Source: Actinomycetales bacterium (GTDB lineage Bacteria > Actinomycetota > Actinomycetes > Actinomycetales > CAWJMD01). From it: 64,000 nucleotides of DNA. Where the stretch lies: the NCBI GenBank assembly GCA_047974565.1, contig JBKECN010000034.1:128760-192759 (forward strand), written 5' to 3'. Made by a program: the position numbers and the translations under genes. Below are positions 40,866 through 58,052 of this stretch, in pieces. Positions within the stretch are counted from its first letter, which is position 1. Every line of letters begins with the position of its first letter. A model generated the notes under the pieces. The model had not been told where the DNA came from. It was given only the letters and a program-made list of their open reading frames with translations, and searched no databases.

Positions 40866-41095
40866 GGTCGAAACCCTAACCGGACCTGCCGACACCTGCG
40901 CCGTGCGCAGGGGCGTGCGGTGTTGCGGACCTCGGCCGCTTGAACCTGGCCCCGGGGCACGTCCGGCACGCCCGTGAGCGGATAGGGGGGTACAGATGTG
41001 GACTCCCTGCAAGGTGCAATCCCGGCTAGCGTCGATCACGTCGACACGCGCGACCCAGGCCAGACCCTTAGCACCGATCCGCCGCAGGAGATGCA

Positions 41096-41533
41096 TTGAC
41101 CAACACCGACTTCGACCAGATCTTCCCCCTCGGGGTGAAGAACGACGCGTTCGCCCAGTACTTCATCGGACAGAGCTATCTGGCGCCGCTTAGCACCGAG
41201 GGAAATGTCGCGGTGAGCAATGTGAGCTTCGAGCCCGGCTGCCGCAACAACTGGCATATCCACCACGGCACCGCGGGCGGCGGCGACCAGATCCTGCTGT
41301 GCACGGCCGGCAGCGGCTGGTACCAGGCCGCCGGCACCGACCCGGTCAGCCTGGTGCCGGGATCGGTGATCCGGGTACCGGCAGGCACCAAGCATTGGCA
41401 CGGCGCGAAAGCGGACTCGTGGTTCTCCCACATCGCCTTCATCACGCCGGGCGAAGGCGTCAGCAACGAATGGCTCGAACCCGTCACCGACGAGGTGTAC
41501 CAGCAGTTGCCCACGGACGATGCGAACGGATGA
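41096..41533 (+). CDS. Cupin domain protein
   Basis: NNWHIHHG...G...IRVPAGTKHWHGA is the two-motif cupin signature. TTG start. Confidence 0.75.
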   Translation: MTNTDFDQIFPLGVKNDAFAQYFIGQSYLAPLSTEGNVAVSNVSFEPGCRNNWHIHHGTAGGGDQILLCTAGSGWYQAAGTDPVSLVPGSVIRVPAGTKHWHGAKADSWFSHIAFITPGEGVSNEWLEPVTDEVYQQLPTDDANG

Positions 41534-41634: not shown

Positions 41635-41958
41635 GTGGCTGAGAAAGTGACCGCCGGCCGGGACGCCCTGGGCGAGTTCGCGCCGACATTTGCCGGGTTC
41701 AACGACGACGTGCTCTTCGGACAGGTCTGGTCCCGCGAGGAGGAGTTGTCCCCGCGCATCCGCAGCATCGTCACGGTGACCGCGCTGATGTCCAGCGGGG
41801 TCCTCGACGGCTCGCTGCAGCATCACATCGGGTTCGCCAAGGCCAACGGAGTGACAGCGCAGGAGATGGCTGAAGTGCTCACGCACGCAGCCTTCTACGC
41901 CGGCTGGCCCAAGGCCTGGGCGGCGTTCCGGCTGGCCAAGGAGATCTATCAGGACTGA
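41635..41958 (+). CDS. Carboxymuconolactone decarboxylase (CMD/AhpD-like) family protein
   Basis: FGQVWSREEELSPRIRSIVTVTALMS...EMAEVLTHAAFYAGWPKAW. GTG follows GAGGAGA. Confidence 0.8.
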   Translation: MAEKVTAGRDALGEFAPTFAGFNDDVLFGQVWSREEELSPRIRSIVTVTALMSSGVLDGSLQHHIGFAKANGVTAQEMAEVLTHAAFYAGWPKAWAAFRLAKEIYQD

Positions 41959-42128: not shown

Positions 42129-42575
42129 TCAGGCATTCAGGCAAAGCGATGCTGCGTTGTCCCAGAACACTGCGCGGACCTGCGCTGGGTCCAACACCTG
42201 CCGGACGAGATCGAAGTCCTCGTCACGGAAGGGACGGCGGGCCCGGGTCGAGGGCAGATCGCTGCCGACCATCAGTGCGCTTGGGTTCACCGCCATGATC
42301 GCGGGATCACGTTGGCCGGATTGAGGGTCACCCGCCCGAATCCGGTGGCCTTGATCTTGACGCCACGCTCGGCCAGGCGCAGCAGTGTGCTCACGCCCTC
42401 TGGTCGGGGGCCTGAGTTGGGTGACGCCGACCAAGGTGGGATCCAGCGCGGCCAACGCACCAACCAGATAGCTCTGGTCGAACCCTTGGAATGACCCCGA
42501 CACCACCGCCCCGCCGGCCACACCCAGCCCAGCGACGCGGTCTCGGTAGTCCACGGCGGTGAAGGGTCCCGGCGC
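42129..42575 (-). pseudogene. Amidohydrolase-2 family gene remnant (N-terminally truncated, frameshifted)
   Basis: Family-like blocks are split over two minus frames: LLRLAERGVKIKATGFGRV in one, and ALMVGSDLPSTR...VFWDNAASLCLNA in the other. It is far shorter than a full-length enzyme. Confidence 0.6.
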
Positions 42576-42636
42576 CGCAACAACGGCGTGCCAACCTCGT
42601 CGCATGTGCCGACCTTGGCATACCGAGACCCGAGTC
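42573..42636 (+). repeat. Dispersed ~65-nt palindromic element, copy 2
   Basis: CAACGGCGTGCCAACCTCGTCGCATGTGCCGACCTTGGCATACCGAGACCCG, in the same orientation as copy 1. Confidence 0.85.
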
Positions 42637-42688
42637 AGGCGACGGTTTGTATAGTGGCTCATATAACATCGACCCGGAGGGATTTGCT

Positions 42689-42901
42689 GTGGCAGTAACC
42701 AGTGTCGACCTCGATCCCCGCCTCATTGAGCGTGCCCGTGAGCTCACCGGGGAGCCATCGAACCGCGCGGTGATTGACCTCGCCCTGCGTCGACTCATCG
42801 CGTCGAAGCAGAAGGGTTCGATGATTGATGGCATCGCCGGGCTCGCCGACCTGCCTGCTGAGGTGGATGCGCCCGTGGTCTCACCCAGACCTGCCTTGTG
42901 A
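42689..42901 (+). CDS. vapB: Type II antitoxin, VapB (DUF2191-like)
   Basis: VAVTSVDLDPRLIERARELTGEPSNRAVIDLALRRLI. GTG 42689 follows GGAGGG. The ORF track starts at 42647. GTGA overlap with vapC. Confidence 0.75.
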   Translation: MAVTSVDLDPRLIERARELTGEPSNRAVIDLALRRLIASKQKGSMIDGIAGLADLPAEVDAPVVSPRPAL

Positions 42902-43323
42902 CCGACTACCTCGTCGACAACTCGGTCTGGGCGAGGTTGGCCGCCGGCGATGAGCGCATATCCGCACGGCTGCGGCGGATCGAACGCGCCCCAGCGGACC
43001 TCTTCGTGACATGCCCTCCGCAGGTGCTCGAGTTCTGTCACAGTGCCCGGACGCCCCAGGAGCACGCGGATTACCGCGAGCTGATCTCGCTGGGCTTCCC
43101 GCTCGAGCGCGCACCTGAGGAAATGCTCGTCCTCGATATCCAGGCCGCGCTGTGGAACTCGGGGCTCATGCGATCGGCGGGGACGGTCGACATCCTGATT
43201 GCGGCGTACGCGATAGTCAACGACGCGACGGTGCTCACCGCCGATCACGACTTCGACCACATCGCCCGGGTGAGCGACCTGAGCCACGAGTACGTCGCGC
43301 CAGCGCAGACACGGGGACGGTGA
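42898..43323 (+). CDS. vapC: Type II toxin VapC (PIN domain)
   Basis: YLVDNSVW, DILIAAYA, VLTADHDFDHI are the acidic PIN residues in their usual spacing. Confidence 0.85.
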   Translation: MTDYLVDNSVWARLAAGDERISARLRRIERAPADLFVTCPPQVLEFCHSARTPQEHADYRELISLGFPLERAPEEMLVLDIQAALWNSGLMRSAGTVDILIAAYAIVNDATVLTADHDFDHIARVSDLSHEYVAPAQTRGR

Positions 43324-43693
43324 GCCAGCTGGAGCCGAGGCTCCACGACCGGCGGCCAAGGTCAGACTGACTCCCGCCACAACGGCCTACATGGCTGCGA
43401 GCCCCAGCACCCGACCGAAATAGGGTTCAGGGGCAGAGTCCAGAACGCCTCCACCTGGCCGTCGCTCGTGTCGACCACGTAGTCAGTAATCCGCTTGGCC
43501 ATCGGCCGGTCCTTGCGGGGCGGGGGCGCGCAGCGACTTGGCGGCTTCTGGATGCAGCCCAATGGTCCAAGCCAAGTTCGGCCACCACCTCGGCCAGGGG
43601 TCTGGGTGGGCACCGCTCCGGAGCCGATCTCACCGACTCGCACAAATAGAACGAGCGCGAACGGTGTGTCCGCCTGGCCAGAGCATCGAGCCT

Positions 43694-43776: not shown

Positions 43777-46215
43777 TCAGTGTCGGCACCGGGTGGCCAA
43801 CTGGACTGCTGGGCCTGGGTCCTGGTCCAGGACCATCGCATCCCCGCACTCGTCGGTGCGTAGCACCCGGGTGCTCGTGCGACCGACCAGACGCAACGCG
43901 GACGGGGCCGGGTGACCGTAACTGTTCCCGGCCCCCACCCCGATGAGAGCGACCGGCGCCGCCAACCGTTCATACAATGCCGGGAACTGCACCGCAGAGC
44001 CGTGGTGCGCGACCAGCACCACGTCCACCGGAGCCAGCTGCGGGTGCGCAGCCAGCGTTCGCTCCAGCGACTGCTGAGCCTGATCTTCGATATCTCCCAG
44101 TGCGGCCACGGTGACCCCGTCCACCCACAGCCAGGTCACCACACTCGCGTTGTTCGGGCCGCTGCCGGAATCCGACCCATGCGTCAGCGACTCCAGCGGC
44201 GCCAGCACCTGGTATCGGACCTGCCCCACCTGCCCGGTCTCGAAGGGCACCGCCTGGTGCGCCGGAACTCCCACGCCCGCAAGCTCGGTCAACGCCTGGT
44301 CGGCCTGCTCGGGCGGCTCCCGCAGCCCGGTGACCAGTACCTCGCGGACGGTTCGCCCGGACACCACCCCGGGCAGCCCATCGACATGATCGGCATGGAA
44401 ATGCGTCAGCACCAGCACCCCGATCTCGACCACGCCCAACCGGGACAGGCACTGGTCGATCGCCACCGGATCCGGGCCGGTGTCGATCACCACCGCCGAA
44501 CCCTGCCCGGCCCACACCACCACCGCACTGCCCTGGCCCACATCACAGGCCACCACCCGCCACCCCGTCGTCGGCCAGCCACTCCACCCACCCGGAAGCC
44601 ACACCTGCACAACGACAATCACCAGCACCGCGGCCACACCGGCGACCAGGCGACGCACCCGCCCACCCCGCACACCGGAGCGCGGCGTCCTGACCGCTCG
44701 TGCGCCCGGCCCGACCTCACCCCGGTCTTCGCGGCTGTTATCCCACCGACGCACTGCTGCCCACGCCCCCAACCCAGCACCCAGCGAGATGACCGCCAGC
44801 AAACCCGCACCCGCCACCCCGGACGGCCACGGCACGCTCGCCCCGGGGAGCCCGGCCAGGAATCCGGCGACCCCGCCGACCCACCGCAACGGCCACCCGG
44901 CCACCCACACCAGCACCTGCGCGACCGGAACCGAGACCACCGAGACGGCCGCAGCCGCCACCCCCAGCACCGTCACCGGCGCCACCGCGGGCTCCACCAG
45001 CAGATTCGCCACCACCGAATACACCGGGATCCGCGGGTCCAGCACCACCAGCAACGGACCCACCGCCAGCTGAGCCGCCACCGGCACCGCCAGCGCCAAC
45101 GCCACCCACCGCGGCAGCACCCGGGCGAGCACGTCGGCCAACGGCGGACCCAGGATCAACAGCCCCGCCGTCGCCGCCACCGACAACCCGAATCCGGCAG
45201 CCCTGGACAACCACGGATCCGCCACCACCAAGAGCCCCACCGCCACGCACAAGGGCGGCAGCCCCGCGCCCGGACGCGCCACCAGCAACGCCACCAGACC
45301 CACCACACCCATCACTCCCGCCCGCAACACACTCGGTTCCGGACCGACCAACACCACGAACCCCACCAACGCCACCGCCGCCCCGACGAACCGCACCCAC
45401 CGGCGTACCCCCAGCACGCTCAACACTCCCAGCACAGCCCCCACCACGATCGTGATGTTCGTGCCGCTGACGGCCGTCAGGTGAGTGAGCCCGGTGGTGC
45501 GCATGTCGGCCTCCAGGTCCGCGGGCAGTGCGGAGGTGTCGCCCACGACGAGACCGGGTAGCAGACCTGCGGGTCCCTCGGGCAGCACCGAGCACGCCAG
45601 TCGAAGCCGTTCGCGGACCAGCTGAGCGGCCGAGGCCACCGGACCAGCCGCAGCGATCACCACCGGGTCCCCGAGCGGCCGGACGATCGCGGCCACGTCG
45701 TCACCCGGGTCGGCCGCGCTCAACCGGGCGCGGACCTGGATGCGCTCCCCGACCACCAGCCCAGCCCACTGTGGGCCACCTACGACGAGCGCCGGCGTAT
45801 GCGCAGTGCCGGCCACCCCGCGAGAGGCCATCTTCTCGATGCGCACCTTGACCACCCAGCGCTCCTGCCCGAACGCCCGCTGCGTGCGCACCGGACGCGG
45901 CGGGGCCCGCACCGTCGCCTCCACCACTCCGGTGGCTCCGTCGTCGATCAGCGCCCCGATCGGGCCCGCCTGACGAGAGCTCACGGCCGCACCGGCCGCC
46001 ACCCCAGCGGCTCCCAGCCCGGCCAGCAACAACGCCACGGCGACCGAAACCACCGCCCCTTGCCGAACCCGACTCGCCACCCACAGCACCACAACAGCTC
46101 CCGCCAGAGCGGCCAGACCGACCCCCACAGCCAAGGCCGGGCGCACCCCGACTCCCACGCCGGCACCGGCCCACAGCCCACCGGCCAACGGGACGAGCCG
46201 CAGGTCGGCCTTCAC
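43777..46215 (-). CDS. comEC: ComEC/Rec2 DNA internalisation protein (with MBL domain)
   Basis: Polytopic N-terminal region, competence block GLTHLTAVSGTNITIV and metallo-beta-lactamase motif VLTHFHADHVDGL. Confidence 0.92.
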   Translation of the reverse strand: MKADLRLVPLAGGLWAGAGVGVGVRPALAVGVGLAALAGAVVVLWVASRVRQGAVVSVAVALLLAGLGAAGVAAGAAVSSRQAGPIGALIDDGATGVVEATVRAPPRPVRTQRAFGQERWVVKVRIEKMASRGVAGTAHTPALVVGGPQWAGLVVGERIQVRARLSAADPGDDVAAIVRPLGDPVVIAAAGPVASAAQLVRERLRLACSVLPEGPAGLLPGLVVGDTSALPADLEADMRTTGLTHLTAVSGTNITIVVGAVLGVLSVLGVRRWVRFVGAAVALVGFVVLVGPEPSVLRAGVMGVVGLVALLVARPGAGLPPLCVAVGLLVVADPWLSRAAGFGLSVAATAGLLILGPPLADVLARVLPRWVALALAVPVAAQLAVGPLLVVLDPRIPVYSVVANLLVEPAVAPVTVLGVAAAAVSVVSVPVAQVLVWVAGWPLRWVGGVAGFLAGLPGASVPWPSGVAGAGLLAVISLGAGLGAWAAVRRWDNSREDRGEVGPGARAVRTPRSGVRGGRVRRLVAGVAAVLVIVVVQVWLPGGWSGWPTTGWRVVACDVGQGSAVVVWAGQGSAVVIDTGPDPVAIDQCLSRLGVVEIGVLVLTHFHADHVDGLPGVVSGRTVREVLVTGLREPPEQADQALTELAGVGVPAHQAVPFETGQVGQVRYQVLAPLESLTHGSDSGSGPNNASVVTWLWVDGVTVAALGDIEDQAQQSLERTLAAHPQLAPVDVVLVAHHGSAVQFPALYERLAAPVALIGVGAGNSYGHPAPSALRLVGRTSTRVLRTDECGDAMVLDQDPGPAVQLATRCRH

Positions 46216-47240
46216 ACGCTCACCCGGTCCCGCAGCTGCTCCAACAGCCGGTCACCGATCCCGGAGACGTCCCGAAGCTCATCCACACTCGCGAAAGGAC
46301 CGTTCTGAGTGCGCCACTCGACGATCCGCCCCGCAAGCACCGGCCCGATCCCAGGGAGTTCGTCGAGTTCTGCGGCCGAGGCGGTATTGACGTTCACCAC
46401 GCCCGACTCCGCTGGTGCGCCGGCCCCGGACGAGCCGGCACCCGAACCCGGCCCAACCGCCCCGACCCCAGCTCCCGCGGCGGGAGCAACCGGCACGACC
46501 TGCCCGGGCGTGGGCACCATCACCTGCTCGCCGTCGACCACCTGGCGCGCCAGGTTGATGGCAGCCAGGTCTGCCTCCGGCAGCGCACCACCGGCCGCCG
46601 CGACCGCGTCGGTGACCCGGGCACCCGCACTCACCTGCACCACCCCGGGGTTCTGAACCGCCCCCACCACGTGCACGGTCACCACCACCGGGCTGGGCGG
46701 GGCAGCCGCGGAGGACGGGGACGGCGCATCCTGCGTCGCCTCCGGGGGAACGGTCGGCGAGGCGGGAGACCCCGCCGGGGCACTGGGACTGCCCCGAACC
46801 GTCGTAGCCGTACCCTCGACCGGCTCACCACGAGCGAACTGCGAGCGCAGCACCCAACCACCGGCCACCAGCACCACGAGCAACATGGCCAGCACACCGA
46901 CACGCCAACTACGGGCCGGGCGACCCGGCTCCGACACCCCGCCCAGATGCTCGACCGGCGGCTGCGGAATCCACCCCGCCTCGTCGTCGTCCTCGTCCAG
47001 GTCCGCACACAGCCCACCCGAGACATCGGCCCGCACAGCCCCCGACGCGCTCACCGGCCGAGACACATGCCGACCATCGGAGGGTCCACCGGCCAGGCCG
47101 AGGGCACGCAACCGGTCCAGGAGTTGGGCTCTGCTCACCGCGGCAGCCTCACCGGAAGCGGCAACCGACCGCCAGAACCCGTGAGGCCTGTGGACATCCG
47201 ACCGACCTCGCGGAGCCTGTGGACAAGCAAACAGAGTCAA
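46212..47240 (-). CDS. comEA: ComEA family DNA-binding protein
   Basis: C-terminal helix-hairpin-helix VNVNTASAAELDELPGIGPVLAGRIVEWRTQNGPFASVDELRDVSGIG, one TM segment and an SLBB-like block. The start is uncertain. Confidence 0.85.
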   Translation of the reverse strand: MTLFACPQAPRGRSDVHRPHGFWRSVAASGEAAAVSRAQLLDRLRALGLAGGPSDGRHVSRPVSASGAVRADVSGGLCADLDEDDDEAGWIPQPPVEHLGGVSEPGRPARSWRVGVLAMLLVVLVAGGWVLRSQFARGEPVEGTATTVRGSPSAPAGSPASPTVPPEATQDAPSPSSAAAPPSPVVVTVHVVGAVQNPGVVQVSAGARVTDAVAAAGGALPEADLAAINLARQVVDGEQVMVPTPGQVVPVAPAAGAGVGAVGPGSGAGSSGAGAPAESGVVNVNTASAAELDELPGIGPVLAGRIVEWRTQNGPFASVDELRDVSGIGDRLLEQLRDRVSV

Positions 47241-47291
47241 GCAACAGAGCAGGCCCCCGCAGGTCTGTATCGCCGGTCGAGGTCACACCCG

Positions 47292-48188
47292 ATGCCACCG
47301 TGCTTGACTCAGGGCATGCCGTCCGACCCGATCGGCCCGCGCCGAGCGGCCGACCGCACCCACGCCTCACCCACCCACACCTCACCCACACGCGCCTCCG
47401 GCACACCAGGGCCCGCGCCCCGGCCAGGCCCGCCGGCGCACCCCGCCTCGACGAGACACCACGCAACGACCACCCAACCTGGGCAAGACAGCCCAAACAG
47501 ACCAGCGGATCAGGACTTCGCACTGCTGCAGTCACTGTCGCCGCAGGCCCGCGCCAGCCTGCTGCAGCGAGCCCGGCGCCGAACCTTCGCCCGCCGTGAC
47601 GTGGTGGTGCAGGAGGGCGACCCGGCGGACAGCCTGCACTTGGTCAGTTCGGGCCGGCTGGCGGTGCGGGCTTCCACCGCGGACGGCGAGTCCGCGCTGC
47701 TGACGATCCTGGTACCGGGCGACTACTTCGGCGAACTGGCCCTGATGCCCGGACGCTCCGGACGCCGTACCGCCACCGTGCTGGCGCTCGAACCAGCCGA
47801 GACGCTGAGTATCGACTCGGGCACCTTCCGGGACCTGCGGGCCAGCCACCCCGACGTGCAGGAAGTGGTCGCCGAAGCGCTCGCCCGGCGGGTGGAGGAC
47901 CTGTCCGCCCGGCTGCTGGAGGCCCTCTACATGAGCCTGGACGTGCGCGTGTGCCGGCGCCTGGACCACCTGGCCACCATCTACGCCGACCGTGATGCCG
48001 GGCACCGGCAGGGTCCGGCGGGGGTGGTCATCCCCCTCACCCAGGAGGCACTCGCCGAGTTCGTCGGAGGCACCCGCCCCTCGGTCAACATCGTGCTGCG
48101 CCGCTTGCAGCATGAGGGAGTGATCGAGGTGTCCCGGGGCCGGGTGACGATCCGCGACCGTCGGGCCCTGTCTGCGCTGCTGGGCTGA
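47292..48188 (+). CDS. Crp/Fnr family transcriptional regulator (cNMP-binding + HTH)
   Basis: cNMP-binding block VVQEGDPADSLHLVSSGRLAV...GDYFGELALM...RTATVLA. HTH block TQEALAEFVGGTRPSVNIVLRRLQHEG. No start codon lies close to the domain, so ATG 47292 or 47316 gives a Pro-rich leader. The start is low confidence. Confidence 0.8.
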   Translation: MPPCLTQGMPSDPIGPRRAADRTHASPTHTSPTRASGTPGPAPRPGPPAHPASTRHHATTTQPGQDSPNRPADQDFALLQSLSPQARASLLQRARRRTFARRDVVVQEGDPADSLHLVSSGRLAVRASTADGESALLTILVPGDYFGELALMPGRSGRRTATVLALEPAETLSIDSGTFRDLRASHPDVQEVVAEALARRVEDLSARLLEALYMSLDVRVCRRLDHLATIYADRDAGHRQGPAGVVIPLTQEALAEFVGGTRPSVNIVLRRLQHEGVIEVSRGRVTIRDRRALSALLG

Positions 48189-48226
48189 TCCACGCTGCTG
48201 GGCTGATCCACGCTGCTGGCCTGACC
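48175..48226 (+). repeat. 18-bp tandem repeat x2.9 containing the crp-like stop codon
   Basis: CGCTGCTGGGCTGATCCA x2 plus CGCTGCTGGCCTGACC. TGA at 48186, 48204 and 48222, all in the same frame. Confidence 0.92.
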
Positions 48227-48419
48227 GAGTCGTCGGCGCCGACGACATACATCAACCGGCCAGCGTCACTCCAGGCCACTCGACGACCCCGCAACCCCCT
48301 ACCGCACCGGCGCGGCGACCCCGTCGGGCGGATCACGCAATCCTGGCGATCAGCCCGGCCCGATGCTAGGTTTAACAGTCCCGCTCACGTGTGGTGGCTC
48401 CTCCAGGAGGCGGTTGTAG

Positions 48420-49607
48420 ATGCGTCCGTTCCCCCGCCGAATCCTCTGGCACAGTAGCCTTCTCGCCGCCCTGCTGCTCGTCGTCGGCGCAACCTCCGCG
48501 CAGGCGCACCGCCCCGACGACGACCCGTCCCGGACCGGGTACACCCACGTCGAGCCGTGGACCCCGGGTGTGGTTCCCGACCTGCCGCCCGCGATCACGG
48601 TCTTCGCCAGTTGCGTCCGCCAGGTCGATCGCGGAACAACCGAAGCGGTCTTCGGGTATGAGAGCACCGCTGCCAAGTCGATCCTGCTGGAACTGGGTGA
48701 GCTGAATGCCGTGCAGGTCCTCGGCCCCCGCCGCCATCACTCCGCTACCGACGCCACCCTGGGCGAGGCTGACGACTCCCAGGCCACCACCAGCGATCCC
48801 GCGAGTGGGGACACCTCCGCGACCGGCGCGGCGGCGACCGTCCAGGGCGAGTCGACCGACCGGGCCAGGCATTGGCGGGGCCGGTGGACCCCGGTGGAGG
48901 CGGTCCAATCGCAGCCCACCCTGATCCTGCCGCAGCGGCGCGAAGCGTACGTCTTCGCGGTGCGGTATCCGACCGGGATGGGCGCGTCGTGGGAGATCGC
49001 CAGCCGGCCGCAGCAGGCACTCGACTCCAGCCCCGATTGGCGAGTGACTGCCACCACCAGCCGAGCCCCCCGGTGCGGCCCACAGGTGCCCGAGCACTTC
49101 TCGGTGGTGCAGGTGCCGGACCACTACAGCATCACCAAGGCAAACGAGGTCTGGAGCATCGGCACCCCTATCGCGCACCTGGCCGGCTACGACGTCCGCA
49201 TGGGACCTTTCGGGCCCGCCCTCGAGCAGATCGCCTGCAGCCCGGGAGGCGTGCCCACCCCCAGCACCGTGTGGTTCGCGTGGCCGACGTCTGGGGCCAA
49301 CCTGCAGCCCCTGGACGATCCGGACGCCCCCCACGTCGTGATCGGCGGTCTGCCCTATCTGATGAGCACTGGGGACACCGCCCGAGTCGCGGACGTGAGC
49401 CAGCCGCTGCGACTGTTCGGGCCGAACGTCGACGTCTTCGGTCACTGCGCCTTCGACGACGGCACCACCGCCACCAGCCTGCCCTTCTGGGCAGACCAGC
49501 CGACCCGGTGGGACTTCCAGCCGGTCTTCGAGGACCCCACCGATCCCACTGCCGTCACCGGAGTCGTGACGATGTCGGCCTCTCCCGGTGGGGTCAGAAT
49601 TCGCTGA
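48420..49607 (+). CDS. Secreted Cys-containing protein, unknown family (paralog B)
   Basis: Signal peptide MRPFPRRILWHSSLLAALLLVVGATSAQA. Shares TVFASCVR, EAVFGYES, VQSQPTLILP, DWRVTATT, APRCG, EHFSVVQ, IACSPGGVP, TATSLPFW and SPGGVRIR-stop with paralog A. Its stop abuts the next ORF. Confidence 0.8.
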   Translation: MRPFPRRILWHSSLLAALLLVVGATSAQAHRPDDDPSRTGYTHVEPWTPGVVPDLPPAITVFASCVRQVDRGTTEAVFGYESTAAKSILLELGELNAVQVLGPRRHHSATDATLGEADDSQATTSDPASGDTSATGAAATVQGESTDRARHWRGRWTPVEAVQSQPTLILPQRREAYVFAVRYPTGMGASWEIASRPQQALDSSPDWRVTATTSRAPRCGPQVPEHFSVVQVPDHYSITKANEVWSIGTPIAHLAGYDVRMGPFGPALEQIACSPGGVPTPSTVWFAWPTSGANLQPLDDPDAPHVVIGGLPYLMSTGDTARVADVSQPLRLFGPNVDVFGHCAFDDGTTATSLPFWADQPTRWDFQPVFEDPTDPTAVTGVVTMSASPGGVRIR

Positions 49608-52600
49608 GTGACGATGCCCGTGCGCGAGGCTGCCATGCAGCACGGCCGCGCTGAGCCAGACGTCGTGCGGGTCGAGGGTTCTTTCCTGGCCGCCGACGTC
49701 AATGGCTTCACGCCGCTCACCGAACGGCTGGCCCGCGCCGGCCGGATCGGGGCGGAGGCTGTTGCCGGGGTGATGGCCGAGTGCTTCACGGCGCTGCTCG
49801 AGCCGCTCGGCCCGCTCGACGGCTCGGTCATGTTCTTCGGCGGGGACGCGCTCTTCGTCGTCTTCGACGGACCGGACCACCAGATACGGGCCGTGCAGGC
49901 CGCGCTCGCCATGCGTCAGGTGCTTCATCGGCTCGGACGGATCGAGACTCCGCTGGGCTCGGTGCGCCTGAGCATGGCGATGGGGATCGCCACTGGCAGG
50001 GCGCAACAGGTGACGGTCGACCACGCCGACGCGGTGTACCTGCTCGGGCCCGTGATCAGCAGGACCCTTCAATTGCAGAAGGAGGCCGGGGCGGCGCAGA
50101 TCCGGATGGACGCCGGCACCCGCGCCGGTCAGCCGGACGGTCTCGTCCAGGCCGTGGACGCACGGACCTGGCGAGTGGCCCGGGACGCGCGTCCAGACCG
50201 CGGCGACGAACTGCCTGGCGCGCGCGAGGGCGCGAGCCGTCCGGACGAGCCAAAGTCGCTACCCGGCGTCGAGCGAGAACTGCCGAGCGGCCTGCAACTG
50301 ATGGCCGGGGCCGCCATCCCCGAACACCGCATCGTCTCAGTGGCTTTCGTCAACGTGCGGGGCCTGGACGAACTCACCGAGACGGCACGCCAGCGCCAGC
50401 TGGTCGAGATCACCCGGCTGGTGCGGGCCGCGGCCGAGGAGTTCGGGGTGCGCTGGGTGGAGACCGATGTCGCGGTAGATGGCGCGATCATCGTGCTGGC
50501 GGCAGGGGTGGGCACCCGGCATGACGACGACGAGCGGCGCCTGGCCGCCGCCGCCAGCCGGATCCTCACCGAGTGTGCACAATCCGGCTTCGGCGATGGG
50601 TCACAGGCCGGCGTCGCCATCGGCATGCACCGCGGAACGGCCTTCGTCGGCTCCGTCGGCCCCCAGTCACGGGGTTCGTGGGGTTCTCCCCCTCGATCGT
50701 CAACCACACCGGGCTCGGCAGCCGTCCCGAGCGGCGAAGCACGAGCCTCGGTCACCGGACTCACCACGGTGACCGCCGCCCGCCTCGCCGGCGCCGCCGC
50801 CACCGGAACCGCCCTGGCCAGTGACGAACTCACCTCCCGGCTGGCGGGACGGTACCTGCTCAAGGATCCCAGGCAGCTGGCCTTGAAGGGCCGCCGCGCC
50901 CCTGTCACCGCCGCCGTCCTGGGACCCCGCCGCGAGCAGGCCCGGTGGGCGGGCACGTCCGGACTGGTCGGCAGGTCCTCAGAGCTCGACCTGCTCACCC
51001 GAAGCTGGGACGAGCATCGAAGCGGTCGTGGCTCGGTCGTGGAGATCGTCGGACCGGCCGGGATGGGCAAGTCGGCACTGCTGGGTGCCTTCCTCGCCCG
51101 GTGCGGCGAACCGGAGATCGCCATCAGCGCCGACATCGCCGACTCGGTGGTGCCGTTCGGCGCCCTCTCCGCTCCGCTGCGAGCATGCCTGCCTGCCGAC
51201 CTGGCCGCCGTCGTCGCCGGTCTCGGCCCGCGAGGTGTCTTCCTGGCCCCGGTGCTGGGTCAGGACCTGCCACGCACCCCGGCGGTGGACGAGGTGGACA
51301 TCGACTCGGTCGCTCAGATACGCGCAACCCTGCTGGCGCTGCTACTGCAAGAGCGTCCCGGGCTGCTCGTCATCGACGACGCCCACTGGCTCGACCCCAG
51401 CAGCCTCGACCTGTTCGCCCGGGTGGGCCGACCCTTGGCCGACTCCGGATGGCTCATCGTGTTGACCCGTCGACCCGCCGCCGCACCCGTGGTGCCGGGT
51501 GCCCGGCTTCTCGACCTGGAACCCCTCGGCGACGCCGAGGTGGCCCGGCTGGTGGGCGCCGACCAGGGTCGTCCGCTCAGTGACGCCCGGCTCGACGCGG
51601 TGGTGGCCAAGGCGAGTGGAAACCCGCTCTATGCGCGCCAACTCGCCGCAGCGGTGGTCGACTCTTCCGGAGTGGGCCTGCCGGAATTGGCGGAGCAGGT
51701 GATCGGCGCGCGGATCGACCGCCTGGAGGCCGGAGTCCGACACCGGTTACGGGCGGCGAGCGTGCTGGGCGACCCGGTGGACCTCGAGCTGCTGGCCGAG
51801 CTCGTGCCCGATGCCGACCACGGCTGGGAGGCGGCCTCGGAGTTTGTCGTCGTGGACGAGGCTCGACTGCGGTTCAGGCACGACCAGATCAGGCTGGCGG
51901 CCTACGCCGGGCTGCGTTTCAGTGAGCGGGTGCGGCTGCACCGGGCCGTCGCCCTGGCCTTCGAGCGGCGCGCCGACGCCAACCCGGCCCGGCTCGCCGA
52001 CCACTGGCAGGCGGCCCGCGACCCGGCCCAGGTGCTGCGCTGGGCGGGCAAGGCGGCCCAGGACGCCCATACCCGGGCGGCGTACTTCGACGAAGCGCGG
52101 CTGCGGGCATTGATCGTGGAGAATGCCCGGGCTGCAGGGGTTTCCACCCGGGACCGGGCCGCGCTGTACGCGGAGCTGGCTCGATGTCACGAGACCAATG
52201 CGGAGTTCGAGCAGGCCGAGCGGGCGCTGGGGTCGGCGATGCGCTGGGCCGCCCAGGATCAGCGTCTGGACTTGCGGCACCGCCTGGCGCGGGTCGCCTT
52301 TCGTGGCGATCACCTCACCCTCGCGGTGCGACGAGCCTCGATGGCGCTGCGGTCGGCGCCGCCGGACACCCCGGTGCAGGCGGAACTGCTGGTGCTGCGG
52401 TCGGCGGTGCATGCGATGGCGGGCCGGCGCCGGCAGAGCGACCGGGACGCCCGGGCCGCCGATGAGGTGGCCACTCGGATCGGTCGCGATGACCTGCGGG
52501 GAACCGCGCTCAGCCAGCGGGCGCTGAACGCCGATGAGTACGCCGAGCCCGAGGCGGCCGAACTGGCCGCCGAGGCTGTTCCGCTGCTGAAGAAGGCCGG

Positions 52601-53411
52601 CTTGCACCGGGACCTGGCAGTGCTTCGGCTGAATCTGGGCATCAGCCTCATGGTGCGCGGCGACTGGGTGCGCGCGCTCGATGAGTTCGACCAGGCGACC
52701 GACGGTTTCACCCGGTCCGGTTTTGTCCTGGGGCTGGTGGCCACCGACATCAACCGGGCTGGGATCCTGCTCGAGCAAGGCCACGTGGACGAGGCATTCA
52801 CCCTGTTCGAATCCACCACCCGGCAGGCCAGCGCGGCGGGCAACCGCCGGCTCGCACGGTTCGCCTCCGGGTCCGCCCATCGCGCGCAGGCATGGCACGG
52901 GGACCATGACTCGGCGGTGCAGGGCCTGACCCGGGATATCACCGACCTGCGTGGTGACGGTCAGGACGGCGAGGCCGCCGACCTGGAGGCGTACTTGGCC
53001 GAGACTCTGCTGATGGCAGGACGTTTCGATGAGGTGCGCGAAGTGTGCAGCCGCTTGCTGGACGAACTCGCCGACCGTTCTCAGGAGGTGGTGGTGCTGA
53101 CGGTTGGGCGACTGGCCGCAGTCGCGTCCTATCGGGCGGGCGGCGGCCAGGCGTCCCTGCAGGCCCTACGTGACACCCTCGCCCAAGCCCGACAGCGCGA
53201 GTGCCGGATCGAGATAGCCAGGTGTCTGGCCGCCCTGCAGGAACTGGGTGAGCAGCTCGGCGCCGACGACCGGCGGGAACAAGCCGAGGCTCTGGCCAGC
53301 CTGGGGGTCGTGTGGATGCCACCGACCACCGACAGCGCCCACCTCACCAGGTCTCGCAGTCGCGACCTCTCAGGCCAGGCTGGGCTGCAACCAGGCACCG
53401 GGAGTCGTTGA
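49608..53411 (+). CDS. Tandem class III cyclase-homology domains + AAA_16 P-loop ATPase + TPR-like repeats (STAND-type signalling protein)
   Basis: CHD1: FLAADVNGFTPLTERL...FFGGDALFVVF. CHD2: VAFVNVRGLDELT...GVAIGMHRGTAFVGSVG...TVTAARLAG. Walker A GPAGMGKSALLGAF, Walker B LLVIDDAHWLD. About 650 aa of helical repeats follow. No C-terminal HTH was seen. GTG 49608 or ATG 49614. Confidence 0.85.
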   Translation: MTMPVREAAMQHGRAEPDVVRVEGSFLAADVNGFTPLTERLARAGRIGAEAVAGVMAECFTALLEPLGPLDGSVMFFGGDALFVVFDGPDHQIRAVQAALAMRQVLHRLGRIETPLGSVRLSMAMGIATGRAQQVTVDHADAVYLLGPVISRTLQLQKEAGAAQIRMDAGTRAGQPDGLVQAVDARTWRVARDARPDRGDELPGAREGASRPDEPKSLPGVERELPSGLQLMAGAAIPEHRIVSVAFVNVRGLDELTETARQRQLVEITRLVRAAAEEFGVRWVETDVAVDGAIIVLAAGVGTRHDDDERRLAAAASRILTECAQSGFGDGSQAGVAIGMHRGTAFVGSVGPQSRGSWGSPPRSSTTPGSAAVPSGEARASVTGLTTVTAARLAGAAATGTALASDELTSRLAGRYLLKDPRQLALKGRRAPVTAAVLGPRREQARWAGTSGLVGRSSELDLLTRSWDEHRSGRGSVVEIVGPAGMGKSALLGAFLARCGEPEIAISADIADSVVPFGALSAPLRACLPADLAAVVAGLGPRGVFLAPVLGQDLPRTPAVDEVDIDSVAQIRATLLALLLQERPGLLVIDDAHWLDPSSLDLFARVGRPLADSGWLIVLTRRPAAAPVVPGARLLDLEPLGDAEVARLVGADQGRPLSDARLDAVVAKASGNPLYARQLAAAVVDSSGVGLPELAEQVIGARIDRLEAGVRHRLRAASVLGDPVDLELLAELVPDADHGWEAASEFVVVDEARLRFRHDQIRLAAYAGLRFSERVRLHRAVALAFERRADANPARLADHWQAARDPAQVLRWAGKAAQDAHTRAAYFDEARLRALIVENARAAGVSTRDRAALYAELARCHETNAEFEQAERALGSAMRWAAQDQRLDLRHRLARVAFRGDHLTLAVRRASMALRSAPPDTPVQAELLVLRSAVHAMAGRRRQSDRDARAADEVATRIGRDDLRGTALSQRALNADEYAEPEAAELAAEAVPLLKKAGLHRDLAVLRLNLGISLMVRGDWVRALDEFDQATDGFTRSGFVLGLVATDINRAGILLEQGHVDEAFTLFESTTRQASAAGNRRLARFASGSAHRAQAWHGDHDSAVQGLTRDITDLRGDGQDGEAADLEAYLAETLLMAGRFDEVREVCSRLLDELADRSQEVVVLTVGRLAAVASYRAGGGQASLQALRDTLAQARQRECRIEIARCLAALQELGEQLGADDRREQAEALASLGVVWMPPTTDSAHLTRSRSRDLSGQAGLQPGTGSR

Positions 53412-54185
53412 GCGGCACACGAGCCGCCCGCACCGCTGGGGGGTCAGCAAGGCGGCCGGCCAATCGCCGGTGCTGTCGCGACCCCAGCGAGTCGAGGGTC
53501 GCGGGGCGCACCGCGGCTGCCCCTGTTCGGCGGTCGGATCGCTGCGCACGTCCTGGGGCGTGGACACCTGCGAAGGCGTGGACACCTGCGAAGGTGTTGA
53601 CACCTGCGAACCCGGCGCCTCCGAAGCCAGTCGAGCACTCACATGACCGATGGACAGTTCGCTGAGCATGGGTTCGCTCGCGTCCGCCGGTAGGTGCTCC
53701 GGAGCGGGAGTCGTCTCGTCGCCGGCCGGGTTGAAGGCACGCAGGTACCAGAGTTGCCGAACGGTGAGCTGGGTCAGGTCGCCTGGGCGGTGCCGACCGA
53801 TCTCGCTTCCCGGGCCGTGTGGGGTTGGTGGCACCGGAACCCGGGGCGGCGCCTGCCACGAACCAGGAACCGACGACCCGCGCAGCCGTGCTGTCCGACC
53901 CGCGGTGGGGGTGAGCAGGGCGACGATCCAGCCGGGCAATGCCCACCGCGAGCGTGCCAGCCGAGTCTGGACCCAGGACGTGGATGTCGCCGCGGAAGGT
54001 AATTCGGTAGGGGCGACACGAACGCGTTCGTGGAACAGGACATCGTCGGTGCGGCCGACCAGATCCGAGACGGTTCTGGTGGAAACCCTTTCAGGGAAGG
54101 CGTTCTCGGAGGTATTCCCCGCGAGACCACTGAGGTCGTCGAGGTCGGTCCGGCGGAGCGTGGCGGGGTCGAGAAGGGAAATCAT
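53370..54185 (-). CDS. Hypothetical protein (271 aa)
   Basis: The minus frame has a G/C-rich third position over the N-terminal ~100 codons, whereas the opposing plus ORF reads as Arg/Gly/Ser shadow. No family was recognised. The 3' end overlaps the cyclase 3' end by ~40 nt, so the C-terminal part is doubtful. Confidence 0.4.
   Translation of the reverse strand: MISLLDPATLRRTDLDDLSGLAGNTSENAFPERVSTRTVSDLVGRTDDVLFHERVRVAPTELPSAATSTSWVQTRLARSRWALPGWIVALLTPTAGRTARLRGSSVPGSWQAPPRVPVPPTPHGPGSEIGRHRPGDLTQLTVRQLWYLRAFNPAGDETTPAPEHLPADASEPMLSELSIGHVSARLASEAPGSQVSTPSQVSTPSQVSTPQDVRSDPTAEQGQPRCAPRPSTRWGRDSTGDWPAALLTPQRCGRLVCRSTTPGAWLQPSLA
53557..53610. repeat. 18-bp tandem repeat x3 (GGCGTGGACACCTGCGAA)
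   Basis: Read directly from the sequence. It encodes SQVSTP x3 in the minus ORF. Confidence 0.9.
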
Positions 54186-54348
54186 GGGGGTCTCCTAACC
54201 TGGGCCGGAGGCGGCTGCGTCCGGAAATCTGACCTGTCTTCGAGGTTAGGAAGCCGAACTCTGCCGGTCTGTTCGCCCGCTGACACTTCGAGCAAGATTC
54301 GACGTGGGCCCCGCACCGGTCAGTGGTGCGCCGCACACGCGCCAGAGG

Positions 54349-55437
54349 TCAGCGGGCAGCCGGACCTGCGGTCTCCGGACGGGAGCCGGGAGCATAGATC
54401 GCCACACCGACCACTCCGGGCCCGGCGTGGGCTCCGACGACGGCCCCCACCGAACGCACCTGGGGCCGCGTTCCCACAGACTCGGCGATCCGGTCGGCGA
54501 GCTGGTCGGCCCGCTCGGGCGCACCCAGGTGCTGCACGGTGACGAGCAACTCACCACCGCGGGCGGCCCGGGCCGAGATCACCTCCACGAGCCGTTCAAT
54601 GGCCCGGGCCATGGTCCGGACCCGCTCCTTGAGCACTACCCCGCCGTCCTGCACGGCCAGCACGGGTTTGACCGCCAGCGCCTGCCCCAGCACCGCCCCG
54701 GCCATCGAGATCCGCCCGCCCCGGCGCAGATACTCCAGGGTCTCGACCACGAAGAGCACCTCGGTGGCCGAACTGGCCGCAAGCGCGGCCTGGGCCACGC
54801 CGCGCCCGTCACTGCTTGCCCGCGCGGAGGCGGCGGCAAGCACCCCGTAGCCCAAACCCATTGCGAGGGTGCGCGAATCCACCACGTGTACCGGGACGGA
54901 CACCGCACGGGATGCCAGCCGGGCCATCGCCACGGTGCCGGAGGCGTCGGCCGAGAGGTGGATGCTGACGATCTCCCGGGCCCCCTGGGCAACCAAGTGG
55001 CTGTATGCCTCGACGAAGGCCTGCGAGCTGGGCCGTGAGGTGGTCACCCGCTTGTGCGCGCGCAACGCGGCGACGAGTTCACCGTCCGCCAGGTCGGTCT
55101 CCGGTCGGCTCAGGCCATCCCAGATGACGTCCAGCGGCACGACCTCGATGCCGTGGGCGGCAATCTCGTCCGGCGACAGCGAGGAGGTCGAGTCGGTCAC
55201 CACCCCGACCCGGCCCGCCCCCGGCTGTTCGTCGGCGGCTGACTGTTCGTCGTCGGCCCGCTGTTCGTCGTCGGCTGCCTGTTCGTGGTCGACCCGCTGT
55301 TCGACCCCCGCCCGGGCTCGGGCCGGAGCCGGAGGGTGGGCGCGGCCGTGCCTGCGCCGATCGCGGGGGTCCGCACCCCCACCGCCCGGTCTGGGACGGG
55401 CCTCGTCCGCGAGACTGCCTACCGTGGGGATGAGCAC
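54349..55437 (-). CDS. degV: DegV family fatty-acid-binding protein
   Basis: VGVVTDSTSSL...IEVVPL...TTSRPS...SIHLSADASGT is the DegV pattern. The conserved core begins near GTG 55203. The upstream 78 codons are repeat-encoded and may be untranslated. Confidence 0.85.
   Translation of the reverse strand: MLIPTVGSLADEARPRPGGGGADPRDRRRHGRAHPPAPARARAGVEQRVDHEQAADDEQRADDEQSAADEQPGAGRVGVVTDSTSSLSPDEIAAHGIEVVPLDVIWDGLSRPETDLADGELVAALRAHKRVTTSRPSSQAFVEAYSHLVAQGAREIVSIHLSADASGTVAMARLASRAVSVPVHVVDSRTLAMGLGYGVLAAASARASSDGRGVAQAALAASSATEVLFVVETLEYLRRGGRISMAGAVLGQALAVKPVLAVQDGGVVLKERVRTMARAIERLVEVISARAARGGELLVTVQHLGAPERADQLADRIAESVGTRPQVRSVGAVVGAHAGPGVVGVAIYAPGSRPETAGPAAR
55225..55314. repeat. 18-bp tandem repeat x5 (CTGTTCGTCGTCGGCNNN)
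   Basis: Copies at 55225, 55243, 55261, 55279 and 55297. It would encode (xDDEQx)n upstream of the DegV core. Confidence 0.9.
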
Positions 55438-55447
55438 GCGCTGACGC

Positions 55448-57958
<2,511 letters not shown>

Positions 57959-58023
57959 TGTCGTCCTCACCTGAAGTTCTCCAAGCGCCCGGCCCGCCCG
58001 GTGCGTCGGCCAGTTCACCTGGC

Positions 58024-58052
58024 ACAAGAAAACCCCTCACGCAGGAGGGGCT
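58024..58052 (-). terminator. Canonical intrinsic terminator on the minus strand, ~70 nt upstream of the leuS start
   Basis: The minus strand reads GCCCCTC-CTGCGT-GAGGGG-TTTTCTTGT: a GC stem followed by a U-tract. The plus-strand reading has no U-tract. Confidence 0.6.

Follow-up and report, generated by a model that had tools for sequence, protein, structure and literature searches.

A gene pair encoding an exported protein and a bacterial relative of soluble adenylyl cyclase, linked in some genomes to a Crp-type regulator

The genes between comEA and degV

Three genes separate comEA from degV in an Actinomycetales genome, which raises the question of whether their products form one signaling system or are neighbors only. 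In the window, the 64,000-nucleotide stretch of DNA that was analysed, comEC (43777-46215) and comEA (46212-47240) lie on the reverse strand to one side and degV (54349-55437) and leuS (55448-58027), also on the reverse strand, to the other. The roughly 7.1 kb between comEA and degV carry, on the forward strand, crp (47292-48188), the gene of an exported protein designated orphan B (48420-49607) and the gene of a cyclase-STAND-TPR protein (49608-53411). The initial annotation had read these genes as a self-contained module composed of a cyclic nucleotide receptor, a secreted protein and a cyclic nucleotide producer; the three genes lie where it had placed them and their domains are real.

Neither flanking repeats around the module nor signs of a recent insertion or a mobile element were found, and the GC content equals that of the flanks. 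Further, unrelated genes are inserted in the vicinity. Genes of the cupin, CMD and PIN types occupy the interval from holA to comEC, and paralogue A of the exported protein lies between lepA and holA together with the genes of an FMO, a GAF protein and an F420H2 reductase. A VapC-type PIN gene is located about 4 kb from the module. The surrounding genes, here as in related loci, have housekeeping or metabolic functions. Downstream, a doubtful open reading frame of 271 amino acids on the reverse strand (53370-54185) converges with the cyclase gene and overlaps its last 42 nucleotides. It is preceded by AGGAG before the ATG, is of low complexity and contains an 18-nucleotide repeat three times (53557-53610). 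Since searches of Pfam, NCBIfam and PADLOC gave no match and its codon-position GC signal is weak, its membership in the module is unsupported.

A relative of soluble adenylyl cyclase

The longest reading frame of the large gene begins with GTG at 49608, the base that follows the TGA of orphan B, and encodes 1267 amino acids. A start on this very nucleotide had been annotated and agrees with the longest frame, but the true start is likely ATG 49614, which fits the N-termini of the homologues better (MPVRE versus MPYLP). Gene callers placed the start on identical contigs at +7 or +28. Whichever start is used, the gap between the two genes is 0 to 27 nucleotides.

The protein begins with a C1-like cyclase domain (residues 18-190, 49659-50177), identified by HMM alignment with 4CLF and 4OYA, a motif table and the structural model, and continues with a C2-like cyclase domain (residues 239-441, 50322-50930), identified in the same way and by Foldseek. 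A STAND/AAA_16 P-loop NTPase module follows (50964-51527), recognized by PF13191 at residues 453-608, PF13401 and sequence motifs. The AAA_16 match (1.7e-19) includes the Walker A sequence GPAGMGKS and the Walker B sequence LLVIDDAHW, and G485, G487, K488 and D591 are invariant among the homologues. The helical, TPR-like C-terminal region extends approximately from residue 700 to 1240 (51705-53327, boundaries approximate); TPR_2, TPR_12, TPR_19 and ARM_TT21 match at residues 843-1157, and TPR proteins also appear in a profile search of the PDB. This region is presumed to serve as sensor and for oligomerization. No helix-turn-helix family matched the protein at E values up to 0.01, and no transmembrane segment was found. 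The P-loop, the TPR-like repeats and the missing helix-turn-helix are thus as initially described.

The claim of two cyclase-homology domains holds by profile, model, fold search and homologues, but not by the Pfam threshold: PF00211 scores 18.1 bits (E 0.002) against the window protein, below the cut-off of 21.9 bits. Among homologues, the recorded matches of PF00211 are strong (E ≤1e-5). When the family profile was compared with the PDB, human soluble adenylyl cyclase (sAC, ADCY10) was the best match (4CLF/4OYA, E 8e-36), with C1 (16-193) and C2 (343-419) collinear. The model of the tandem cyclase region (pLDDT 82, pTM 0.82) retrieved human sAC in all of the top 24 Foldseek hits (TM 0.70, E 2e-21). 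Cyclase domain 2 contains a low-complexity insert that corresponds to a 22-column gap in all homologues and is disordered in the model (residues 353-375). Full-length homologues share 36-47% identity with the window protein, and relatives are widespread, with 346 confirmed genome loci. Profile and model agree that the core fold is of the sAC type and that the protein is a bacterial relative of human sAC.

Like sAC, the best match in both sequence and fold, the window protein carries two cyclase domains in one chain, arranged as a C1-C2 pseudo-heterodimer. Both metal-binding aspartates of C1 are kept (D30 and D80, sAC D47 and D99), as is the arginine of C2 (R392, sAC R416). The C-terminal region of human sAC contains a P-loop motif and potential TPRs (PMC3475452). 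The long C-terminal region of the window protein, with its P-loop and TPR-like repeats, resembles it in architecture, the PDB holding the catalytic core of sAC only. The window protein differs from sAC in the insert in cyclase domain 2, in the replacement of K95 by Phe76, of R176 by Leu154 and of Asn412 by Val388, and in that its clade has a conserved exported partner encoded upstream. A bacterial relative of sAC is the bicarbonate-activated enzyme of Chloroflexus (Kobayashi et al. 2004, as cited in PMC11006738).

Mycobacterial proteins of the Rv0386/Rv1358/Rv2488c type likewise combine, within the Actinobacteria, a class III cyclase with an AAA_16/STAND module and a TPR-like region. Proteins of this type possess a single cyclase domain and end in a LuxR helix-turn-helix, whereas the window protein contains a pair of cyclase domains and lacks a helix-turn-helix. 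The mycobacterial loci match it partially, in alignments that begin no earlier than about query residues 227-380, at cyclase domain 2 and the NTPase. The proposal that it is an Rv0386 derivative deprived of its DNA-binding domain was rejected, because a tandem cyclase followed by a P-loop and TPRs without a helix-turn-helix is the ADCY10 architecture, to which profile and model point; it is not a truncated Rv0386. Rv0386 itself has cyclase activity and binds its substrate through unusual residues (Castro et al. 2005, cited in PMC3466318). STAND regulators of the MalT/AfsR type (SARP-AAA-TPR and LuxR-AAA-TPR) share the AAA_16 and TPR chassis and account for many weaker matches; their effector is a DNA-binding domain, whereas that of the window protein is the cyclase pair.

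The exported partner protein

Orphan B comprises 395 amino acids, and its ATG is preceded at a distance of 9 nucleotides by the Shine-Dalgarno-like sequence AGGAGG (48405-48410, forward strand). Its N-terminus has the hydrophobicity peak of a signal peptide (residues 1-29) that ends in AQA. In the AlphaFold model (pLDDT 78.9) an N-terminal beta-sandwich (residues 41-212), broken by a disordered insert (residues 107-161), is followed by a larger C-terminal beta domain (residues 228-387) and a flexible, conserved tail, PGGVRIR-COOH. Its description as a signal-peptide protein of no nameable family was borne out: Pfam, NCBIfam and PADLOC yielded no family match, and the model no significant match among PDB folds.

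The family is rare, with 38 representatives in 1.84 billion proteins searched exhaustively with a profile. In an alignment of 18 members, four cysteines are invariant (C65, C219, C273, C343) and R393 and R395 of the R-x-R-COOH tail are nearly so. The N-termini carry throughout a hydrophobic segment with an AXA or lipobox-like end, and about half of the family has a twin-arginine in the signal peptide. From these sequence features and the model, the family is predicted to be exported and to consist of two beta domains; it belongs to no curated family and is undescribed.

A second member, paralogue A (38522-39685, forward strand, 387 amino acids), was found by tblastn within the window and is 58% identical to orphan B in the alignment. 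It adjoins holA, and no cyclase gene follows it; it corresponds to database protein P0002, which comes from the same metagenome-assembled genome.

Gene pairing across genomes

In 12 of the 15 assessable loci a gene of the orphan family lies directly upstream of the cyclase clade and on the same strand. The seven spacings measured range from a 37-nucleotide overlap to a 161-nucleotide gap, most being shorter than 30 nucleotides. Four paired cyclases were measured and share 36-47% of their residues with the window protein; for the exported proteins, identity amounts to 24-34%. None of 80 sister-clade loci has an orphan homologue. Members of the orphan family without a cyclase gene are paralogue A of the window and those of loci L091 and L096.

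The linkage of crp is looser. Among eight loci with enough flank, four contain it; in L004, L087, L088 and L090 it is absent within the available flank of about 5-10 kb upstream. Orthologues were found near the pair in L003 and L005 (42-45% identity) and in L094 (profile E 2.6e-118). In L003 and L094 the gene of a SARP regulator separates crp from the orphan gene, and in L092 one lies upstream of the orphan gene. Genes of cyclic nucleotide-binding proteins also adjoin some sister-clade cyclases, for example in L049 and L051. Because crp is linked in half of these loci only, the conserved core consists of two genes. The three-component module as originally conceived is therefore retained for the exported protein and the cyclase and weakened for Crp; the survey of neighborhoods that had been suggested shows the genes co-located in other genomes, so that the refuting condition of genes never found together does not apply.

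The pairing is new, whereas the cyclase type is already known. To our knowledge, and within a limited literature search, an exported partner encoded upstream of sAC or its bacterial relatives has not been described. Cyclases of this type, Crp proteins and STAND regulators are each well known.

The Crp-type regulator

The first ATG of crp yields a protein of 298 amino acids, supported by Pfam and codon-position GC. The N-terminus is extended by about 80 residues of low complexity, rich in Pro, Thr and His; the cyclic nucleotide-binding domain (residues 97-185) and the Crp-type helix-turn-helix (residues 219-296) follow. The Pfam matches are PF00027 (2.9e-21), PF13545 (4e-16) and PF00325 (3.6e-5). 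The extension belongs to the reading frame, since in-frame starts are limited to 47292, 47304 and 47316. An overlapping frame on the reverse strand (47532-48248) was dismissed as a shadow frame, judged by codon-position GC.

Among solved structures, GlxR of Corynebacterium and CRP of M. tuberculosis come closest (E about 5e-26). The cAMP-contact motif FGE...RT is kept; the sequence FGELALMPGRSGRRTATV aligns with FGELSIFDPGPRTSSAV of GlxR with a two-residue insert. The phosphate-binding cassette retains the glutamate and the Arg-Thr pair (E72, R82 and S/T83 in E. coli). The domain match and these contact residues agree with the annotated view that the nucleotide-binding fold is intact, as far as the sequence predicts it. 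The recognition helix, by contrast, reads RPSVNIVL against RETVNKAL in GlxR, and of the CRP-type set R180, E181 and R185 the equivalents of E181 and R185 are lost. In the intergenic regions no sequence agrees with TGTGA-N6-TCACA at 8 or more of the 10 positions. From its sequence, the DNA specificity of this Crp likely differs from the CRP type.

The 3' end of crp carries three tandem copies of the 18-nucleotide unit CGCTGCTGGGCTGATCCA (48175-48228, forward strand; period 18, 2.8 copies and 96% matches in Tandem Repeats Finder, in agreement with a repeat search), which duplicate the last codons of crp and its stop codon. Directly 3' of it follows the perfect 18-bp palindrome GTCGTCGGCGCCGACGAC (48229-48246; 100% complementary in the repeat search), which may form the stem of a terminator or serve as an operator.

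A model of signal transfer and its alternatives

The most plausible explanation, to which we give a probability of roughly 0.55, is an operon that couples an exported protein to an sAC-type protein, with Crp as the reader in this lineage. Its core would be the conserved, tightly coupled pair of genes, which would be co-transcribed. The first would deliver, through Sec or Tat, a disulfide-containing protein of two beta-sandwich domains; the second would encode a cytoplasmic relative of ADCY10 whose two cyclase domains together form a pseudo-heterodimer that has one nucleotide site. The STAND P-loop NTPase and the TPR-like array probably act as a switch controlled by a ligand or a partner, and the exported protein may contact this STAND part. 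If the cyclase is active, the divergent Crp, with its intact pocket, would be the receptor of its product and probably converts the cyclic nucleotide output into transcription. An exported and a cytoplasmic protein have no obvious route by which to meet, and no mechanism links the two.

What this may contribute is best seen from sAC itself. Of the approximately 1100 C-terminal residues of sAC, with their P-loop and TPR-like motifs, an analysis of 2012 left most unexplained and identified within them no more than a haem-binding domain and one short autoinhibitory motif (PMC3475452). A bacterial clade of the same architecture tied to one partner protein, and in some genomes to Crp or SARP, offers a tractable system in which to ask what the C-terminal region senses. 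In addition, a rare, unannotated exported family of actinobacteria is defined and receives its first functional context.

The regulatory residues bear on how the cyclase is controlled. At the position of the bicarbonate-site Lys95, all 12 orphan-linked cyclases examined carry phenylalanine, threonine in one, within the signature FFGGDA (TFGGDA in the one). The non-linked loci in which the motif was read all have LK[FQ]GGDA, the sister clade thus keeping the lysine. The exchange tracks the partner gene exactly in the sampled loci and therefore suggests that regulation of the cyclase has changed; it may serve as a marker of switched control.

The catalytic residues give rise to the strongest alternative, in which the core of the window subclade binds ATP and metal without making a cyclic nucleotide and the protein serves, with its exported partner, as a nucleotide-sensing STAND scaffold or regulator. 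Crp would then read the product of other cyclases or be a mere neighbor. In the window protein and those of L003, L005, L086, L092 and L093, Val or Ile occupies the position of Asn412, and Leu replaces the preceding aspartate, that of the GD motif. The loss of Lys95 throughout the orphan-linked loci, the insert in cyclase domain 2 and the PF00211 score below the cut-off point in the same direction. Tandem-domain proteins annotated as binders exist: the whole model also aligns with P. aeruginosa 6YII (E 2.8e-12, TM 0.58), titled in the PDB a "class III adenylyl cyclase-like ATP-binding protein", a possible precedent for a protein that lacks the asparagine, although the match is weaker than that to human sAC. 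Arguing against this alternative, both metal-binding aspartates and the equivalent of Arg416 are conserved throughout, which would be unusual for a dead enzyme. Moreover, the orphan-linked sisters L004, L088, L089 and L090 retain the asparagine in GDT[VI]NTAARL and L087 in the variant CVNVAARL, and all three readable crp-linked cyclases lack it, which would be odd if no cyclic nucleotide were made. We consider a nucleotide-binding scaffold unlikely but a serious competitor. Because of the exchanges Asn412 to Val and Lys95 to Phe and the sub-threshold PF00211 score, cyclase activity is uncertain, and so is the role of producer assigned in the initial annotation, which the retained metal aspartates and arginine favor.

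A more specific form of partner control is improbable. According to it, the exported protein is itself the input ligand of the STAND module, and its G-G-V/S-R-x-R-COOH tail would be bound by the TPR array in the cytoplasmic precursor, before export. The twin-arginine in about half of the family would fit export of a folded protein through Tat, and the Lys95-to-Phe exchange is consistent with a replacement of bicarbonate control by control through a protein ligand. The output of the cyclase would report the state of export or of the envelope and, if this were true, the enigmatic STAND/TPR region of sAC-type proteins would gain its first defined input.

Very little speaks for a defense function, in which the STAND-TPR part would detect an invader and the cyclase would raise a cyclic nucleotide alarm for a nucleotide-binding effector, in the manner of Pycsar or Avs. 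Such invader sensing, raised when the locus was first annotated, draws on the STAND architecture, on the nearby PIN gene and on weak PADLOC matches of PycC to cyclase domain 1 (2.2e-6) and of Pycsar effector and cyclase models to the nucleotide-binding domain of Crp (about 1e-12). These matches are, however, at the level of generic domains and yield no system call. Pycsar resembles the module in combining a class III-type cyclase with a cyclic nucleotide-binding protein, but its cyclases are small and single-domain and its effectors are TIR or membrane proteins, whereas the receptor in the window is a transcription factor; PADLOC and Pfam revealed no TIR or transmembrane effector in the module. 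The exported nature of the conserved partner, the lack of mobile-element or island signs, the GC content of the flanks and the housekeeping or metabolic neighbors also argue against defense. Equally improbable is that three functionally unrelated genes met by chance at an insertion hot spot of a conserved block, as the other insertions between lepA, holA and comEC and the patchy linkage of crp might suggest: for the exported protein and the cyclase this is largely refuted by their recurrence in 12 of 15 loci, tightly spaced or overlapping despite low sequence identity, and orthologous crp genes accompany the pair in three other loci.

A sAC-type cyclase-STAND protein

What is conserved is a pair of genes, presumably transcribed together as an operon, in which the gene of an exported protein of 395 aa (the orphan, 48420-49607(+)) precedes that of a sAC-type cyclase-STAND-TPR protein of 1267 aa (49608-53411(+)). 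Pfam assigned AAA_16 (1.7e-19) and TPR-type repeats to the larger protein but no HTH, as the initial annotation had read it. Failure of the cyclase domains against PF00211 had been named there as a refuting result, and taken literally this came close, as the window protein scores 18.1 bits where the cut-off is 21.9. PF00211 is stronger in the full-length homologues, which are 36-47% identical, with unmarked records at E <=1e-5 for the database protein P0008 and for the protein of the related locus L088. The best solved match of a profile built from 12 members of the family was human soluble adenylyl cyclase (sAC, ADCY10; E 8e-36), with C1 and C2 collinear. Residues 1-451 were also modelled with AlphaFold (pLDDT 82, pTM 0.82), and the top 24 Foldseek matches of this model were human sAC, aligned along the entire two-domain core (TM 0.70, E 2e-21). 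Because of the homologue matches, the profile and the fold search, the homology of the cyclase domains is secure despite the low PF00211 score.

On profile and model the window protein is classed as a bacterial sAC-type enzyme, whose catalytic activity is at most predicted. A reading as an Rv0386-type protein (mycobacterial cyclase-ATPase-TPR) that had lost its LuxR domain was rejected, since sAC is the best match by both approaches. The cyclase architecture itself is thus of a known kind: a P-loop motif and potential TPRs are likewise reported for the long C-terminal part of human sAC (PMC3475452), and activation by bicarbonate is reported for a bacterial relative from Chloroflexus (PMC11006738). 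Relatives are common, with 346 confirmed genome loci, the best 80 of which were retrieved.

The active site was read from an HMM alignment to 4CLF together with a family motif table. The 4CLF numbering in this alignment reproduces D47, K95, D99, R176, N412 and R416, which we take to be the sAC residues concerned. The metal-binding D47 and D99 are kept as D30 and D80 and the catalytic R416 as R392; lost are the bicarbonate-site residues K95 and R176, replaced by F76 and L154, and the catalytic Asn, N412, replaced by V388. A low-complexity insert before the V388 motif corresponds to a 22-column gap in all homologues, and aa 353-375 are disordered in the model. The motif GLTT[VI]TAARL occurs in the window and in five related loci (L003, L005, L086, L092, L093), GDT[VI]NTAARL in four others (L004, L088, L089, L090), and the sister clade of 25-32% identical cyclases has mostly G-D-x-x-N-x-AARL, with a few exceptions. 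At the position equivalent to Lys95 the split between cyclases linked to an orphan-family gene and unlinked ones is clean: all 12 linked cyclases have FFGGDA (TFGGDA in one), and the unlinked loci, wherever the motif was read, all have LK[FQ]GGDA, in which the Lys is retained.

The most probable reading, and the one we work with, is a module for cNMP signalling with a putatively active enzyme. The NTPase and TPR part would gate the cyclase pair, and the neighbouring Crp would turn the cNMP signal into transcription. The main rival holds that the subclade without the Asn consists of nucleotide-binding pseudo-cyclases; 6YII, which is also matched by the cyclase model in Foldseek and is titled a cyclase-like ATP-binding protein, provides, by its title, a precedent for binding without catalysis. 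A defence role, which takes up the invader part of the ligand- or invader-sensing proposal in the initial annotation, finds no support beyond domain-level matches that are weak and generic.

The exported partner and its pairing with the cyclase

The orphan gene has a strong RBS and encodes a hydrophobic N-terminal segment ending in AQA. That the protein belongs to no nameable family was borne out, as neither Pfam, NCBIfam nor PADLOC returned a match. Word-index protein searches retrieved only the orphan itself, a 58%-identical paralogue and one fragment, and an exhaustive profile search found 38 proteins among 1.84 billion representatives, the majority of 320-360 aa. Four Cys are invariant across the alignment of 18 members, each of which starts with a hydrophobic segment that in some resembles a lipobox; about half of the family has a twin-arginine in the signal peptide, and nearly all of the 18 end in G-G-V/S-R-x-R-COOH. 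The model (pLDDT 78.9) consists of two beta-sandwich domains, with a disordered insert specific to the window protein (aa 107-161) and a tail of low confidence. A PDB fold search with it gave no significant match, the best (E 0.097) being generic FN3, Ig and RbmA-like folds. The N-terminal domain resembles a repeat of large actinobacterial surface proteins, and in these proteins the repeat is covered by no Pfam family.

Relatives were collected by a locus search anchored on the cyclase alignment and, for metagenomes, with a narrower orphan alignment. In 12 of 15 assessable loci an orphan-family gene is followed directly downstream, on the same strand, by a sAC-type gene (the window's orphan, L003, L004, L005, L086-L090, L092, L093 and L095); the exceptions are paralogue A of the window, L091 and L096. 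The count leaves out L094, whose contig ends ~100 nt past the orphan, and both contigs of the database protein P0124, one with a truncated gene of 1090 aa following, the other with only a 74-aa minus-strand call before its end. The spacing in the seven pairs measured ranges from a 37-nt overlap to a 161-nt gap and is mostly <30 nt. Chance co-location, which would make the orphan and the cyclase mere neighbours, is excluded because the pair recurs across loci. Among the sister-clade loci in the best 80 of the 346 genome loci, none (0/80) has an orphan homologue. The literature searched contained no description of the pairing, and the strict, clade-specific association with an undescribed exported family, with loss of the bicarbonate-site Lys alongside, appears to be new.

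Tight gene coupling usually points to a physical partnership of the products. The final compartments of the two proteins should be separate. A speculative scheme of low probability is that the TPR array recognises the flexible conserved R-x-R-COOH tail of the orphan before this protein is exported.

Paralogue A (387 aa, 58% identical to the orphan) is encoded at 38522-39685(+), adjoining holA 9 kb upstream, and no cyclase gene follows it; one cyclase-STAND gene may serve both paralogues, or paralogue A may act alone. In the long-contig loci L003 (8882-9995) and L005 (8801-9872) the orphan homologues are each split over two reading frames, which may reflect assembly indels or pseudogenisation.

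Crp as a lineage-specific addition

The claim that all three genes are encoded together holds for the orphan-cyclase pair and only in part for crp: an orthologous crp lies near the pair in only four (window, L003, L005, L094) of the eight loci with enough flank and is absent from L004, L087, L088 and L090. Crp was added in particular lineages, and it is likely to be what reads the cyclase output. Its coding frame by codon-position GC is 47292-48188(+); a minus-strand ORF (47532-48248) without Pfam match and with the wrong codon-position GC was rejected as a shadow ORF. Since the only in-frame starts are 47292, 47304 and 47316, a low-complexity extension of ~80 aa belongs to the protein. Crp matches PF00027 (2.9e-21) and PF13545 (4e-16), is nearest among solved structures to Corynebacterium GlxR and M. 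tuberculosis CRP (E ~5e-26), and retains the FGE...RT cAMP-contact motif. Its recognition helix reads RPSVNIVL versus RETVNKAL in GlxR, and no TGTGA-N6-TCACA box was found upstream of crp, the orphan and their homologues, both of which suggest that its DNA target is probably unlike classical CRP sites.

In L003 (5861-8788), L094 (1207-4257) and L092 (2-448) the gene directly upstream of the orphan encodes a SARP/BTAD-family regulator whose C-terminus is TPR-like, and the window has no such gene; a TPR-containing ORF at this position in L093 (2-1066) may be the same gene. The long-flank loci L003 and L094 have the order crp(-), SARP, orphan, cyclase. Just before the orphan RBS of the crp-linked loci L003 (8874-8889) and L005 (8816-8831) is an exact palindrome, GATCGT-N4-ACGATC, which like a CRP site spans 16 bp and could serve as an operator for the Crp or SARP regulator encoded nearby. 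The window module lacks this palindrome, and the five matches with two mismatches in the window are attributable to chance.

Genes with a cNMP-binding domain also adjoin some cyclases of the sister clade. Examples are the alphaproteobacterial loci L049 (8461-9303(-)) and L051 (8620-9516(-)), in each of which the cyclase-AAA_16 gene of the sister group has a divergent Crp-like gene upstream; the pairing of cyclase-STAND protein and cNMP receptor thus recurs beyond the linked clade. Downstream of the pair in L005 (14773-18411) are an alpha/beta-hydrolase-cyclase fusion (450 aa) and another AAA_16 protein (702 aa), so that cyclase and STAND genes are locally clustered there.

Layout of the locus

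The source is a metagenome-assembled 'Actinomycetales bacterium', the window has a GC content of ~0.71, and database copies of two window proteins carry the locus tags ACK5MT_07200 and ACK5MT_07250. The gene order was established from the listed ORFs, their codon-position GC and their Pfam matches, and it confirmed that the three plus-strand genes lie between comEA (46212-47240(-)) and degV (54349-55437(-)), which is followed by leuS (55448-58027(-)). This stretch of 7.1 kb has the GC content of its flanks, and no convincing direct or inverted repeats that would indicate a mobile insertion flank it. Unrelated genes also lie between holA (39843-41096(-)) and comEC (43777-46215(-)), namely a cupin gene (41096-41533), a carboxymuconolactone decarboxylase-family gene (41635-41958) and a PIN/VapC-like gene (42898-43323), and between lepA (29795-31648(-)) and holA, where genes of a flavin monooxygenase, a GAF protein and an F420H2-dependent reductase precede paralogue A; the whole block therefore took up insertions, not the comEA-degV interval alone. 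An ORF at 42391-43380(-) was rejected as holA and is a shadow ORF.

An Rfam scan of the window returned zero RNA families, and a 98-nt tRNA-Arg(tcg) called by ARAGORN within the comEA coding region (46777-46874(-)), where Rfam has nothing, is a probable false positive. The promoter and terminator scan of 47000-54500 gave no result better than chance. At the 3' end of crp three tandem 18-nt copies are followed by a perfect 18-bp palindrome. The copies (48175-48228) are in frame, span the final crp codons and the TGA, and each is stop-terminated; the array looks like replication slippage, and loss of the first stop would lengthen Crp by six residues per copy. A second three-copy array of the same 18-nt period (GGCGTGGACACCTGCGAA, 53557-53610) lies in a doubtful minus-strand ORF (53370-54185) and would encode SQVSTP three times.
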